Virus record (IMG/VR): IMGVR_UViG_3300025151_000001
Coordinates: 1 to 64,000 of that record
Source: a virus
Length of the DNA stretch: 64,000 bases
Direction: 5' to 3' (one strand)
Shown here: piece by piece, positions 15,282-28,338 of the stretch
Position numbering within the stretch: the stretch's first letter is position 1
Layout: each line of letters begins with the position of its first letter
Translations under genes and position numbers: made by a program
The notes under the pieces: generated by a model
Seen by the model: only the letters and a program-made list of their open reading frames with translations
Told to the model about the DNA's origin: nothing
The model's database searches: none

Positions 15282-15488
15282 ATGATTCGACTAAGAATTT
15301 TGAATGATACCGGCCATACAGAAGTCATGCTCGCCTCTTCCGAGGTAATTGAGCAAATTGATACCCACCCGACCCATTGGGTTTTCATCAATGGGGAAAT
15401 GGTGAGTCGTGAAGAGATTACGACACTCGATTGGAACACAGTCGAGAATGTTGACCTTACTCCGGCAATTGTTGGAGGTGCTTTCTGA
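15282..15488 (+). CDS. Ubiquitin-like (ThiS/MoaD/SAMP beta-grasp) protein with GG-AF C-terminus
   Basis: 68 aa; VFINGE motif; ends VDLTPAIVGGAF, matching the ThiS/MoaD V.I.P...GG pattern plus a 2-residue extension. Confidence 0.8.
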   Translation: MIRLRILNDTGHTEVMLASSEVIEQIDTHPTHWVFINGEMVSREEITTLDWNTVENVDLTPAIVGGAF

Positions 15489-18225: not shown

Positions 18226-18473
18226 GAGCAGTAATTGTTAAAGGTGGAAAGATTCTTTCCATTGCGAGTAATACTCGCAAAGGTCATGCTGAAGTGAACG
18301 CCATTAAACAGGCGAGCAAAACCGAAGGCGCAGACATTTATGTTACACGTCATACGCCAACAGGAATGGCGATGGCGAAACCATGCGATAATTGCATGGA
18401 AGCAATTAAAGCGGCGGGCATCCGTCGAATTTATTACACTAGCCGTGATGGCTACCATAAGGTGATGGTATGA
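18153..18473 (+). CDS. Zn-dependent cytidine/dCMP deaminase family protein
   Basis: GAVIV, HAE, PCDNC, GIRRIYY; start uncertain. Confidence 0.88.
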   Translation: MCKRTRNFNVARKKAIECDYFYRLGAVIVKGGKILSIASNTRKGHAEVNAIKQASKTEGADIYVTRHTPTGMAMAKPCDNCMEAIKAAGIRRIYYTSRDGYHKVMV

Positions 18474-18637
18474 AAGAACACGACCCGGAATATGTAAAAA
18501 ATATTAGAGGTTATAAAAAACGTGTAGCAACACGTTGTCGAATTTGTGGTGGACAACTCCTACACCCCGAAGACTTTAAAAGAGAGATGCACGAAAAATG
18601 TGCAAAATTAGAAGACAAATCAACTTATCTGATGTGA
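18470..18637 (+). CDS. Small Zn-finger protein (CRICG...HEKC)
   Basis: Manual translation MKEHDPEY...STYLM. Confidence 0.65.
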   Translation: MKEHDPEYVKNIRGYKKRVATRCRICGGQLLHPEDFKREMHEKCAKLEDKSTYLM

Positions 18638-18641
18638 TATT

Positions 18642-19778
18642 ATGGAATTAGAAAAAAATGTTAAAATTTATAAGCCTGACGATACTAGAGGGTTTTATAG
18701 CACAGTATTACTTCTTGGAGAAAATCATCCAAGTAGGATTGAAATACACCCTTCTAGGGCATTGAAAGACCCGGTTCAAGGAGCAATTGCTTCTGAGTTA
18801 AAACTTATTCTTCAGGGTAAGCACAGTCGTTGTTGGTTCTCTGTTTCTGCAAAACCTAAAACAATCACAATCGGTAGCCTACCTATCCTTATTCAAAAGC
18901 AAGGTAGTCGCTATCTTCTAAATGGTCAGGCGCTCAGTCTTAATGAAATTACGAACACTTTGGCGCGAGTAATGTATAAGAGTTGCTTCACTAACGACCA
19001 AGGACTTTTGATGAAGACTATGATTAGTTACATGAATATGCCAGAAAATGTTCGGTATGTTCTGGAGAATCGTCTTCCTTATTTCTTTTATGAGAACTTT
19101 AGGAAGATTGATGTTAGGCTTAACGTCATGCAAATTGAAGATGAGAAATGTGCCATTGAGATTTCAGATGGGGTATGGGGCGAAATTTCTTTCAAGGATT
19201 TGAATACGATGTGTAACTTCTATATCCACGGGAAGCAAAGGGGTTCATGGAAGTTTATTTCACCAGATGACCTTTACTTTAGGTTAGTTGGTGAGCAGAT
19301 TTCAGAATCAACTGAGAAAGTAATGCTTGAGTTTTTGAAGCAGAATCGTCAAAGTGACATTGTTGAAAAGAGAGCCGAAGAATTGATGATGGATTTGCAG
19401 AAACAATACCCTCAAAGAATTAAGATTGTTGAAGGAGAGGATGGAACTACCATGTATGTTCGAGGAAAGGGCTACGATTGGAAATTAACAGACAACAAAT
19501 ATAAGTCTGATATTCAACAAGTTAGCACATATGTCTGGCAACCGAACGGTGTGAAATCAAATTCAGAAACAAACGAAATTGAACTTTCTGAAGCAACTTG
19601 GCGAGGGCCAATTTGCATTGATAACATGGCTAGAGGTTCTTCTTTGGGCGACCAATTTGCTGCAAGAGCCCTTGCACTTCTAAATGACACTTTGACTATT
19701 CAAGTCGTGAATACAATTAAGCGTTACATCAACGCGAATGAAAATGAAAATAGGATTGATTGGCATGAAATGCGATGA
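18642..19778 (+). CDS. Hypothetical protein; C-terminal domain possibly E2-like
   Basis: Long ORF; TYVWQPN...GPICID resembles E2 HPN...GxICL; function tentative. Confidence 0.5.
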   Translation: MELEKNVKIYKPDDTRGFYSTVLLLGENHPSRIEIHPSRALKDPVQGAIASELKLILQGKHSRCWFSVSAKPKTITIGSLPILIQKQGSRYLLNGQALSLNEITNTLARVMYKSCFTNDQGLLMKTMISYMNMPENVRYVLENRLPYFFYENFRKIDVRLNVMQIEDEKCAIEISDGVWGEISFKDLNTMCNFYIHGKQRGSWKFISPDDLYFRLVGEQISESTEKVMLEFLKQNRQSDIVEKRAEELMMDLQKQYPQRIKIVEGEDGTTMYVRGKGYDWKLTDNKYKSDIQQVSTYVWQPNGVKSNSETNEIELSEATWRGPICIDNMARGSSLGDQFAARALALLNDTLTIQVVNTIKRYINANENENRIDWHEMR

Positions 19779-20598
19779 ATGTGGTTCGCGTAACAACACC
19801 TTCGATGAAAGAATGGGTGAACGCATTTGTGATGATTGCGGACTCGTTATTCAAGTCGAAGCCTTTGAAGAAACTGTTCGTCTAAGCATGGGCGAAGATG
19901 GTTCCTTTCGTTCCAAGGATTATGGTCTTGGTTCTGAAACTACCTTCATGAAGCGTGCAAAATCTTCAAGAAACGACTCTGAAAGAACACTAGAGAATGG
20001 TTATAGAGTCATGCGTATGGTAGTTTCATCTTTGAAGTTACCATTTAACATTAACGACAGATTAGAACAAATCTATCGTGAGTTGATTACTAAAGGTATT
20101 CTTTCTGGTTCTACCTTAGAAACAAGAGCAACAGCGATTGTCTACTACGCTTTGAAGGAAAATAGAACACCTGCAACCTTAAAAGAAGTCTGTGGTGAAT
20201 TCCAAGTCCAAAGCAAATTAGTTCGAAAACTAACTAGAAGAATTACTAGACATTATGGCAACAATGTATTAAGAAATGATGATTCCCATTTCTTAATGCA
20301 ACGTGCCATTGCGAATATTTCAAATGACCCTGCCTTTGTATCTCATTGTTTGCAGACATTTGAATTCTTTGAAAAACTAATGAAAGAATTAGATGAAAAT
20401 AAGACAAAGTTGCACTACGCAACAATGGTGTATTTTACATCATACATTCACAACTATCCATACTCAGCAACTTCGATTTCTAAAAATTTGAAGTGTTCTG
20501 CTAATGGAATCAGAATCTCCGGTAGGAGGTTGCTACCCCTAATTGGTCTAAAGGGAGTTGAGCAACTCAAAGGAATTGACCTAGAAAAATTGATGTGA
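19765..20598 (+). CDS. tfb: Transcription initiation factor B (TFIIB)-like protein
   Basis: Zn ribbon CDECGS...GERICDDCGLVI; GLGS; ERTL; cyclin repeats (A.AIVYYA...PATLKEV). Confidence 0.85.
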   Translation: MKCDECGSRNNTFDERMGERICDDCGLVIQVEAFEETVRLSMGEDGSFRSKDYGLGSETTFMKRAKSSRNDSERTLENGYRVMRMVVSSLKLPFNINDRLEQIYRELITKGILSGSTLETRATAIVYYALKENRTPATLKEVCGEFQVQSKLVRKLTRRITRHYGNNVLRNDDSHFLMQRAIANISNDPAFVSHCLQTFEFFEKLMKELDENKTKLHYATMVYFTSYIHNYPYSATSISKNLKCSANGIRISGRRLLPLIGLKGVEQLKGIDLEKLM

Positions 20599-20603
20599 TA
20601 TAA

Positions 20604-21161
20604 ATGAAGAAAGTATTGATTATTGGAGCAGGTGGTATTGGGAGTTTCTTGATTCCACTTCTAGACAGAATTAACGAATACGATATTCAGGTGGCTGACC
20701 CTGATAAGGTGGAGACAAAGAATCTCCTGTATCAGAATTACCTACCTTTGAATGTTGGGCAGAATAAAGCACAGTCAATGCAAGACATTCACAATAATGT
20801 CTCAAAGGCTAGCCCCTATCCAATTTTAACTGCGAAACAAATGGAAGGTTATGACCTTGTTGTTTCATGTGTAGATAACCTTGGAGTTAGAAGAACTCTT
20901 TACAACACAACCCTTAAGTGGCTTGACCTTCGCGCTCAAGGTAGAAATGCGGCTCTTGTGTCGCACAACGCGGACCCCTCGCTTTATGATACTCTCTTAG
21001 CAGGTCCAGAAGGTTCATTTTCATGCCAAGCAGGAGATTGGGACGGTTCAGGAAAGAATGTGAATCTAATGAATGCTATGATTGCAGGTGCAGGCGCTCA
21101 ATGGATTCAGAAGTATTTTAACAATGAAGAAACAAAAGCGTTTATGACGTTTAATATTTGA
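20604..21161 (+). CDS. ThiF/MoeB/E1-like adenylyltransferase
   Basis: VLIIGAGGIGS, DPDKVETKNL..Q, VGQNKA, DLVVSCVDN...R, WLDLR, candidate catalytic Cys in SFSCQ. Confidence 0.9.
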   Translation: MKKVLIIGAGGIGSFLIPLLDRINEYDIQVADPDKVETKNLLYQNYLPLNVGQNKAQSMQDIHNNVSKASPYPILTAKQMEGYDLVVSCVDNLGVRRTLYNTTLKWLDLRAQGRNAALVSHNADPSLYDTLLAGPEGSFSCQAGDWDGSGKNVNLMNAMIAGAGAQWIQKYFNNEETKAFMTFNI

Positions 21162-21171
21162 GGTGAATAAA

Positions 21172-21744
21172 ATGAAGTATAATAAATGGAAACAAGAAGA
21201 AATTAATTTTGTGCGAAAGTGCAGAAAGAAAGGAATGAAGTGGCGAGAAATTTGCGATAAACTCGAAGTAGTTTATGGACGAAAGACTACACCACAAAAC
21301 ATTATGCGCTTTAGGGAAGCAAAGCCAAAAACCGTAAATGTTAAGAAAGTTGTTGAGGAACTCGTTGAGCCAAAGGAAAAGAAGTGGGCTTACACCCGAT
21401 TTAACTATACTCCACAACAGGAGTTAGGAATTATGGTTGATTTCCCCAACCTGAGTATTGACGAAATGCGTGAAAAATACCAAAGAGATTATCGCGCCCT
21501 CGCAGCCCGATATGAAAACATTTGGGACTCGGAAGAACCTTCAAGAATTGCATTGGTTATGGAGGCTTCTCAGATTGTCGCCGCCCGTAAGGCGGAAGCG
21601 GACGAGAAGGCCACAGAACCCCGTATGGGATGGTTTGAGAAGCGAAGGATGCGACGTGTGGCGCGTAAGGCCGCGAAGATTCAGAAGCGATTGGATAAGA
21701 TGGCTACCAAGTATGGTGCAATTCTCACCAAAGGAGATGAATGA
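21172..21744 (+). CDS. Myb-like/HTH DNA-binding protein
   Basis: KWKQEEINF...GMKWREI..KL...GRKT. Confidence 0.6.
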   Translation: MKYNKWKQEEINFVRKCRKKGMKWREICDKLEVVYGRKTTPQNIMRFREAKPKTVNVKKVVEELVEPKEKKWAYTRFNYTPQQELGIMVDFPNLSIDEMREKYQRDYRALAARYENIWDSEEPSRIALVMEASQIVAARKAEADEKATEPRMGWFEKRRMRRVARKAAKIQKRLDKMATKYGAILTKGDE

Positions 21745-21745
21745 A

Positions 21746-22270
21746 ATGGGTAAGATTAAAGATAGGTTCTTTGATGAAATCAATTCAGAAGATGATTCTG
21801 ATTATGAATATTACCAATCTGCTGATAATGTAATCAGGGGTGCTTGGGATATCTGTATGGACCATTACGGTCAAATGTCAAACACGCATCATCCTGAATT
21901 GAATGAAGCAATCTGGGATTGTTCAACAATGTTGTTTCCCGGTCTTGAAATTCAAGTTGTGATTGATGGTGCAGATAATTTGCATTGGTCCCTCGGTTCA
22001 CCCGGATATGTTGATTTTCCTGCACCACCATACGGAATGAAATTGCCGATTAAGTGTTGGATTCATACTCATCCCTTTGGTTCTGCATATTTTAGCGGAA
22101 CAGATTGGAAGACTATTGATACATGGCGCATTCATATGCAACGTGCCGAAGTCCTTGGAAACATGGAATGGGGTGTTTGGGATGGTGAAGCGGGCCACCA
22201 ATACACCCATATTAAGGTTACAGAAGACAGTAACCTACTGCTAAGAAAAATTGGAAGTGAAGAAGAATGA
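21746..22270 (+). CDS. JAB/MPN+ (JAMM) metalloprotease
   Basis: Upstream Glu (LEIQ) and WIHTHPFGSAYFSGTD, matching HxHP-x-SxxD. Confidence 0.85.
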   Translation: MGKIKDRFFDEINSEDDSDYEYYQSADNVIRGAWDICMDHYGQMSNTHHPELNEAIWDCSTMLFPGLEIQVVIDGADNLHWSLGSPGYVDFPAPPYGMKLPIKCWIHTHPFGSAYFSGTDWKTIDTWRIHMQRAEVLGNMEWGVWDGEAGHQYTHIKVTEDSNLLLRKIGSEEE

Positions 22271-22668
22271 AGAAATTTGAAAGAAGACAACAAGAAAAGA
22301 GTCAATCATTTACGATTGACTATTCTAGGACCACGCGCCGTTATAAGAACGGAACTGCGAATATGCATACCGTTTATATTAACGAAACAATTGATGGAAG
22401 AGGTGGAAAGAAGTTCACCAACACCATTCAGATGCTTGTTCCTGTTGAACCTATGGAATGTTCAAAGCGTGTTGAAAAGCATAAAGCCCGCCATCCAAAT
22501 GATGTGAAGAAGATTCATGATGAGATGCACATTCCCGGTAATGCTCGTCAAGCAAAAGCCGGAAAGCGAGATAAGCATTTGAAGGAGTTTTATAAGACCC
22601 ACGTTTATGCTTACGTTTCTGAAGGAAAGCGTCGTTGGATTAAGATTCCCGAAGGTGATGAACAATGA
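22267..22668 (+). CDS. Basic hypothetical protein
   Basis: ATGA coupling at both ends. Confidence 0.7.
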   Translation: MKKFERRQQEKSQSFTIDYSRTTRRYKNGTANMHTVYINETIDGRGGKKFTNTIQMLVPVEPMECSKRVEKHKARHPNDVKKIHDEMHIPGNARQAKAGKRDKHLKEFYKTHVYAYVSEGKRRWIKIPEGDEQ

Positions 22669-27539: not shown

Positions 27540-27887
27540 ATGCAAAAAACATACAATTATTTTACTGAAAACGATGGTTCTTCGATTGAAATTGATTCAA
27601 TGAACGCTAAACAGTTAGGCAGGGCTATCAAATCCACCTATGATAGACTGAGGGGGCAGTTTTACCTTCTATCTAGTTTGCATTCTAAATTAGGAGAAGT
27701 TAGGTCTAACAAAAAGACTCCAGACACAAAGAAAAAGGTCTTGAAACTGCTGAAGATTAAAAGTCTTCCCTCAGATAATGAAAAGCGATTAGAGCAAGTA
27801 ATTGAAACTGCAATCGTTCTTATGGACTCTGAAAAAGATTACGAATTTGTTAAAAAAGTATTAGAGCAGGGGATTAAAAATGATTAA
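27540..27887 (+). CDS. Hypothetical protein
   Basis: ORF track. Confidence 0.7.
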   Translation: MQKTYNYFTENDGSSIEIDSMNAKQLGRAIKSTYDRLRGQFYLLSSLHSKLGEVRSNKKTPDTKKKVLKLLKIKSLPSDNEKRLEQVIETAIVLMDSEKDYEFVKKVLEQGIKND

Positions 27888-28338
27888 GGAAGGACAATTT
27901 ACTATTATTGATGGAAAGACATATCAAGTTGTTAGAGTTGATGGGACATTTGCTCATCTTCATAACGTCGAAACTTATAAAGGGCGTCCACGCAAGATGC
28001 TTTTGTCGAGAGTCCCGTATTTTGATGAAAGTGGAACTCTAATAGAGCCAAAGCAGGAAAATACTAAGATTCCAACTAGAAAATTTCAATCGAAAGTAAA
28101 TGTAAGAGAGATTGTTAAGAACGAAACGGAAATGCAGGTTTCTAAAAAAGCAATTATGTTTCTTCAAGAACAACTTAGTAGCATTTGTGAAATTTTAATT
28201 TCAAACGCTGAACAAACCGCAGAAAGACATGGGCATTCGAGGATTGGACCAGAACATATTTGTTATCTCAATATTCCAGACCTTCATTATGAAATATTAG
28301 TTGACCATAAGGAATACATCGAGGACGGTATGGGCTGA
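27880..28338 (+). CDS. Protein with C-terminal archaeal-type histone fold
   Basis: VREIVK...QVSKKAI..L.E.L.......ISNA...A..HGHSRIGPEHI. Confidence 0.7.
   Translation: MIKEGQFTIIDGKTYQVVRVDGTFAHLHNVETYKGRPRKMLLSRVPYFDESGTLIEPKQENTKIPTRKFQSKVNVREIVKNETEMQVSKKAIMFLQEQLSSICEILISNAEQTAERHGHSRIGPEHICYLNIPDLHYEILVDHKEYIEDGMG

Follow-up and report, generated by a model that had tools for sequence, protein, structure and literature searches.

Several groups of ubiquitin-type conjugation proteins have been described in prokaryotes. Clusters of genes encoding an E2-like protein, an E1-like protein, a JAB protease and a ubiquitin-like protein (Ubl) were reported by Iyer, Burroughs and Aravind (2006, PMC1779556), and several prokaryotic E2-like families lack the classical His (PMC1779556). 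In BilB, the proven E2 of the bacterial BilABCD (ISG15-like) ubiquitination systems, the loop that joins strand 4 to the catalytic Cys varies in sequence, and a His is conserved close after this Cys (CEHH; Cys138 and His151) (PMC10557695). Here we study a gene of 378 codons (hereafter the target), found at positions 18,642 to 19,778 of a stretch of 64,000 nucleotides of viral DNA (the window, positions 1 to 64,000 of IMG/VR record IMGVR_UViG_3300025151_000001). The C-terminal domain of its product has a UBC-like predicted fold and a near-invariant Cys at what is, by topology, the place of the E2 active site, and the protein is therefore probably an Ubl carrier enzyme. Our favoured reading, which we hold with moderate confidence, is that it serves a magrovirus Ubl system as an E2-like conjugating enzyme, one that is divergent and virus-only. 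The record holding the window is complete (92,240 bp, with direct terminal repeats). We assign the virus to the magrovirus type, tailed viruses that infect Marine Group II archaea, from its gene content (class II ribonucleotide reductase [RNR], dCMP deaminase, TFB, thermosome and ATP-dependent ligase), from hundreds of collinear relatives on marine contigs of about 90–100 kb, and from the published description of magroviruses, which it matches (PMC5434244).

We modelled the target with AlphaFold (AF2), both at full length (predicted local distance difference test [pLDDT] 85, predicted template modelling score [pTM] 0.51) and as residues 225–378 alone, using an alignment of 67 sequences (pLDDT 82, pTM 0.75). 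The two models have the same layout: a long helix, four antiparallel strands (260–301), a small hairpin in a variable insert, a strand leading into Cys325, and three helices, the first of them at 335–347. This contains the elements of the UBC fold in their order, i.e., the N-terminal helix, the four-strand antiparallel meander, the Cys loop, the crossover helix and the C-terminal helices. We aligned the models exhaustively with 48,161 representatives of PDB clusters, and for both of them about 90% of the top 50 matches belong to the UBC superfamily. The top match is the ELF domain of FANCL (score 6.5–6.7). The others include UBE2S (5.6, with a root-mean-square deviation of 3.9 Å over 111 residues), Ubc9 (5.2), the UEV domain of Tsg101 (5.2), UBE2F (5.1), RWD domains (about 5), the bacterial Cap2, CdnG-E2 and a Bub complex chain (9eav_D) (4.1–4.5), and I215L of African swine fever virus (ASFV) (3.8–4.3). 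Whole-domain alignments with canonical and giant-virus E2s cover 106–118 residues at about 4 Å. The aligned ranges (15–131 of the model and 9–121 of Ubc9), which are not a residue-level superposition, are consistent with Cys325 standing at the catalytic Cys. Hence, the C-terminal part of the target (about 140 residues) is predicted to adopt a UBC fold. A preliminary description of the locus had noted beta strands followed by a helix in this region and had suspected such a fold; both models returned it.

Cys325 is the only invariant Cys of the C-terminal domain. It is found in all 46 close relatives and in 91 of the 92 full-length representatives of clusters made at 50% identity, which are the set used for the residue counts given below; the single representative without it appears truncated or frameshifted. 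The three elements singled out in the preliminary description, TYVWQPNG, WRGPICIDNM and the downstream helix (GDQFAARALALLND), lie at residues 296–303, 320–329 and 336–349, and the cysteine of ICID, whose conservation it had named as a check, is conserved. In the model, Cys325 directly follows the strand that ends at residue 324 and precedes the next helix by 10 residues. Its immediate neighbours are well conserved (I324 in 80, I326 in 83, D327 in 84 and N328 in 75 representatives), and the positions of the following helix even more so (G336 in 86, D337 in 91, Q338 in 92, R342 in 91, N348 in 90 and D349 in 90). This gives the family signature [ILV]-C-[IV]-D-N ... GDQ..R.....ND. The local pattern G-x-I-C-I-D-x-[LIVM] parallels the G-x-I-C-L-D-I-L of E2s, and the distance from Cys to the next helix equals that of nine canonical E2s of giant viruses. 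The target has more than 510 homologues of about 380 residues each, and the Cys is kept throughout its close relatives, so its sequence pattern is more than chance. With its one invariant Cys and the invariant polar residues beside it, the region resembles an active site, and not a metal site or a packing residue. We propose that Cys325 is the thioester cysteine.

Among the described systems, the target would, by analogy, work most like BilB. Both are stand-alone proteins with a UBC fold (predicted, in the case of the target) that are recognisable mainly by structure, with a Cys at the catalytic position (placed there by topology in the target) and a variable loop between strand 4 and this Cys (10–70 residues in the target family). 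The proposed context is also similar: an Ubl whose GG is followed by one or two masking residues, a JAMM protease that would remove them, and a ThiF-type E1 lacking the ubiquitin-fold domain (UFD). In contrast to BilB, the target lacks the conserved His after the Cys (none in residues 326–349) and has D/N and GDQ..R..ND instead, it carries a conserved N-terminal extension of 235 residues, and it matches no PADLOC, Pfam or NCBIfam model. The viral E1 is a single adenylation domain of 185 residues, without the inactive adenylation domain, the mobile Cys domain and the Zn site. The viral genes lie scattered along 7 kb of a replication module in an archaeal virus, whereas the Bil genes form a four-gene defence operon in bacterial hosts.

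Canonical and giant-virus E2s (the UQ_con family, e.g., UbcH5, Ubc9, UBE2S and ASFV I215L) resemble the target in the predicted fold, the order of its elements, the G-x-I-C-[IL]-D pattern and the spacing from Cys to helix. They differ from it in having an HPN motif and in lacking significant profile similarity (hhalign 2%); the target has shorter loops in the meander, an additional hairpin insert before the Cys, another helix signature and a large N-terminal extension. The association of genes for E2-like, E1-like, JAB and Ubl proteins recalls the Prok-E2 clusters, and the best PDB and PADLOC matches of the viral E1 are the E1–E2 proteins of the Cap2 type known from CBASS. The differences are that no Prok-E2 model matches in the genome, that the target is not fused to the E1, and that its distribution is virus-only. 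With no HPN, no His of the CEHH type and no profile match, the target falls outside the UQ_con, Prok-E2 and BilB-type families as far as sequence features can tell. We think it fairly probable that it represents a new, virus-only family of E2-like proteins.

We searched Pfam, PHROGs, PADLOC, NCBIfam and the PDB sequences with the target, both as a single sequence and as a profile, and obtained no usable match. Neither UQ_con (PF00179) nor any of the models Prok-E2_A to Prok-E2_E was matched at E ≤ 10 by 46 members of the family or anywhere in the 92-kb genome. If the system uses an E2, the target is the only candidate seen in this complete genome. A profile of the C-terminal domain retrieved 153 sequences from 1.84 billion representatives; nearly all the full-length ones have 330–490 residues with the domain at the C-terminus, and none has another architecture or an annotation that would connect the target to an established family of E2s. 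Separately, a repeat protein of 1617 residues matches positions 48–82 of this profile (35 residues, in the region of strand 3) ten times. The scan of 185,579 genomes of prokaryotic species (GTDB) produced a single match, on a contig of 1951 bp (CAXBMW010000043.1) assigned to a metagenome-assembled genome of a Balneolaceae bacterium. This contig is probably a mis-binned magrovirus fragment, and therefore we found no host copy of the target with search patterns that reach close relatives only. A tblastn search of a phage collection found no relative, and the viral structures of BFVD include only three homologues. The ESM Atlas gave no usable match for either half of the protein (its own model is poor, with a pLDDT of 0.42), and a comparison of the N- and C-terminal parts revealed no internal repeat. 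On this evidence, from the profile search and the genome scan, the family appears to be virus-only.

The putative partners of the target are encoded on the same strand, together with a transcription factor and a small CxxC...HxxC protein (Table 1). In 72 related loci the Ubl always ends in AIVGG followed by zero to two variable residues, and G65 and G66 are invariant. The viral Ubl also has invariant N8, G11, H12, H29, P30, T31, H32 and W33 (GH...HPTHW) beside the terminal GG; the three invariant histidines are unusual for a protein of the ThiS/MoaD type and hint at binding of a metal or a partner. The best PDB sequence matches of the E1 are Cap2 (2.6e-6), UBA5 (8e-6) and MoeB, and it also matches the E1–E2 models of PADLOC and the NCBIfam models PRTRC_ThiF and ThiF. 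Its length is always 184–187 residues in an alignment of 69 sequences, shorter than typical ThiF/MoeB enzymes (about 240–250 residues), and it has neither C-terminal Zn-binding CxxC pairs nor an E2-docking domain. The Cys141 of this E1 is invariant within S-x-S-C-Q, which suggests a thioester relay. The JAMM motif is conserved in 69 relatives, and the Pfam model Prok-JAB aligns on this motif with an E-value of 0.0065, below the cut-off. In 149 of 160 related loci, the gene immediately before the target encodes a homologue of the CxxC...HxxC protein; this small protein has no meaningful match in Pfam and is a possible zinc-binding partner for the target.

Table 1. Positions in the window of the target, its parts, and the genes discussed with it.
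Feature	Position	Strand	Description
Ubl	15282..15488	+	68 residues, ThiS/MoaD-like; translation ends PAIVGG-AF; 66-residue form ends GG
CxxC...HxxC protein	18470..18637	+	55 residues; stop 4 nt before target ATG; starts in ATGA overlap with dCMP deaminase stop
Target open reading frame (ORF)	18642..19778	+	378 residues; ATG..TGA; N-terminal alpha/beta region and C-terminal UBC-like domain
N-terminal part, about 235 residues	18642..19346	+	conservation equal to that of the C-terminal domain, e.g., ENR.PY, A.E.SDG.WG
C-terminal UBC/E2-like domain, residues about 236–378	19347..19775	+	predicted helix, four-strand meander, hairpin insert, Cys loop, three helices
Strand 4 ending WQPN, residues 294–303	19521..19550	+	conserved among close relatives only
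Variable insert, strand 4 to Cys strand	19551..19598	+	about 10–70 residues in relatives; modelled as small hairpin
WRGPICIDNM, proposed active-site loop, residues 320–329	19599..19628	+	Cys325 codon at 19614–19616
Post-Cys helix, residues 336–349	19647..19688	+	GDQFAARALALLND; GDQ..R.....ND; modelled helix 335–347
TFB/TFIIB-like transcription factor	19738..20598	+	Pfam TFIIB 5.7e-9, Zn_Ribbon_TF 4.4e-8; start overlaps target end
Minimal E1, ThiF-family adenylation domain	20604..21161	+	185 residues; Pfam ThiF 1.1e-13; GxGxxG, CVDN..R, invariant Cys141
JAMM/MPN+ metalloprotease	21737..22270	+	HTHPFGSAYFSGTD = HxHx7SxxD; conserved Glu upstream

A parallel to the E1 is seen in a crAss-like phage (Bacteroides phage crAss001, MH675552.1, 77727–86047), where sequence comparison found no relative of the target. 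The ThiF-type gp76 of this phage matches the magrovirus E1 profile (E-value 1.3e-15) and directly follows gp77, which carries the JAMM motif HxHx7SxxD. In its N-terminus gp76 has the sequence TAIVGG, which resembles the end of the magrovirus Ubl.

We analysed the co-occurrence of these genes in 252 fetched loci, with contig sets that overlap between fetches. The genes for the Ubl, the target, the E1 and the JAMM protein co-occur wherever the flank is long enough (229/229, 191/191, 171/171 and 227/227). Only TFB separates the target from the E1 gene, as the preliminary description had stated; this is correct for the present genome. Across the magrovirus groups, RNR and dCMP deaminase may be present or absent, and the interval from TFB to the E1 gene holds 0–2.5 kb of small ORFs. 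The spacing ranges from 505 to 2993 nt between target and E1, and from 250 to 4678 nt between Ubl and target. One divergent group has no RNR, and its Ubl gene lies about 0.5–0.7 kb upstream of the target; in another, TFB is replaced by a zinc-ribbon–helix-turn-helix protein of 212–226 residues. Thus, the four genes stay together while their neighbours change. Since the entire module keeps its gene order among these viruses, we count this linkage as moderate evidence only.

We also predicted the structure of a complex between an E1 dimer and the full-length target. It obtained a score of 0.58, against 0.37 for the best of three controls, with runs that agree in at least 43% of the contacts and a partner pLDDT of at least 75. 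Of 80 solved complexes, 58 reach this mark, as do 2 of 110 mismatched pairs; those that do so with a score of 0.60 or less are only 7 of the 80, together with both passing mismatches. The prediction thus lends weak support to a binding of the E1 by the target, a slight push at most.

Several observations weigh against an E2-like function. The family has no HPN motif: the preliminary description had likened WQPN to it, and this analogy fails, because P301 is present in 16 and N302 in 8 of the 92 representatives, and the spacing from WQPN to the Cys varies between 20 and 80 residues. The suggestion made there that the target may be the E2 is supported in part, by the UBC fold of the models, the conserved Cys325 and the Ubl/E1/JAMM context. 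The signature GDQ..R..ND has no counterpart in canonical E2s, and the placement of Cys325 relative to their catalytic Cys is drawn from topology and aligned ranges, not from a superposition. Forty-six members scanned at E ≤ 10 matched nothing in Pfam, NCBIfam or PADLOC, and there is no PDB profile match. The comparison by hhalign of the target profile with the nine canonical giant-virus E2s, pulled from contigs with a DNA pattern, is not significant (probability 2%, P 0.02); its greedy mode, equally not significant, gives a collinear alignment with Cys on Cys and WQPN opposite YHPN. Neither Pfam nor the PDB sequences, including profiles, gave a match for the Ubl, so its beta-grasp fold is read from the sequence pattern only and its assignment, like that of the JAMM protein (no significant family or PDB sequence match), rests on the motif. 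Co-occurrence and proximity are weak evidence of a functional link in a collinear replication module, in which the target is coupled just as constantly to a transcription-factor gene. Archaeal SAMP conjugation is not known to need an E2.

The fold itself is compatible with a non-catalytic adaptor resembling UBC, RWD or UEV proteins (such as the ELF and DRWD domains of FANCL, Mms2/UEV, BRCC45, or the RWD domains of the kinetochore or Mediator), which would bind the Ubl or the E1 as a cofactor, or work with TFB in transcription, and in which the Cys would be structural or regulatory. The top structural match, the FANCL ELF domain, is indeed non-catalytic, and the coupling to a transcription-factor gene fits such a role. 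We consider an adaptor unlikely, however, since RWD and UEV domains are defined by the lack of a catalytic Cys, and the FANCL domains and BRCC45 have no active-site Cys either, whereas the target family keeps Cys325 almost without exception among divergent representatives. The invariant polar residues around it (D327, N328, D337, Q338, R342, N348 and D349) form the pattern of an active site and not of a binding surface, and the E1 retains its own invariant Cys141. The same models speak to the idea that the resemblance to UBC is an artefact of modelling or of chance, and that the domain is a generic alpha/beta domain with a role in replication or transcription. This is very improbable: with both of the independent models and in all three search modes, nearly all of the 50 best matches out of 48,161 chains come from this one superfamily, and the order of the secondary structures fits UBC, as does the position of the invariant Cys.

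The conserved Cys could also serve another chemistry on a UBC-like scaffold, e.g., a sulfur relay from a thiocarboxylated Ubl, as in CysO/Mec+, perhaps for the modification of nucleotides or tRNA. Sets of ThiS/MoaD-type Ubl, ThiF-type E1 and JAB proteins are found with sulfur-assimilation genes in prokaryotes (PMC1779556), the best family matches of the viral E1 include ThiF and MoeB, and both the GDQ..R..ND signature and the conserved N-terminal part set the family apart from E2s. Genes of nucleotide metabolism (RNR and dCMP deaminase) lie between the Ubl gene and the target in this genome, but they are not found at this place in other virus groups with the four genes. The roughly 30 ORFs scanned between 14 and 28 kb include no rhodanese, cysteine desulfurase, thiamine, molybdopterin or thiolation enzyme, and the fold matches indicate E2/UBC and no sulfurtransferase. 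We therefore regard such an enzyme as a distinctly unlikely explanation.

If the target is an E2-like conjugating enzyme, the pathway could run as follows. The JAMM protease would trim the Ubl precursor (GG-AF) and expose its Gly-Gly end. The ThiF-type E1 of 185 residues would adenylate the Ubl, probably take it onto Cys141, and pass it as a thioester to Cys325 of the target. There, D327/N328 and the GDQ..R..ND helix may complete the active site as a substitute for the absent HPN. The conserved N-terminal part is proposed to bind the E1 (which lacks the E2-docking domain/UFD), substrates, or both, and the target may therefore act as an E2 with built-in E3-like targeting. The Ubl would end up on lysines of host or viral proteins, a modification that the JAMM protease could reverse. 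An extended version of this scheme, which we put forward as speculative and rather improbable, makes the target a self-contained E2–E3 hybrid: its N-terminal half would pick host proteins (e.g., transcription or proteostasis factors) to be tagged with the 66-residue Ubl, so as to take over the Marine Group II cells, with the new catalytic signature replacing HPN. The context of this version is the translational coupling of the target to the viral TFB and the presence of a thermosome gene nearby.

The magrovirus papers that we consulted make no mention of ubiquitin, ThiF or JAMM, and we found no paper on the target family or on such an Ubl pathway in an archaeal virus. Magroviruses rank among the most abundant viruses that infect archaea of the ocean surface, and for most of their genes no function has been assigned. 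If the target is a working E2, these viruses carry a full private Ubl pathway, with a tag, an activating enzyme, a carrier and a protease. It would then be a new branch of the E2 superfamily, unrecognisable by sequence and devoid of HPN, next to an unusually small E1, and it would bear on the minimal size and the evolution of ubiquitin-type cascades. Were the hybrid version true, it would be a previously unreported kind of virus–host interaction, acting via an E2 family in which HPN is replaced by a new catalytic signature.

Two other ORFs on the same strand have faint family matches. Just after the JAMM gene, an ORF of 133 residues (22267–22668) resembles an APOBEC4-like deaminase with an E-value of 0.004, below the cut-off. 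Further downstream, an ORF of 152 residues (27880–28338) has a sub-threshold match to the core histone fold (PF00125, E-value 2.1e-5, 25.2 bits for a cut-off of 26.4).
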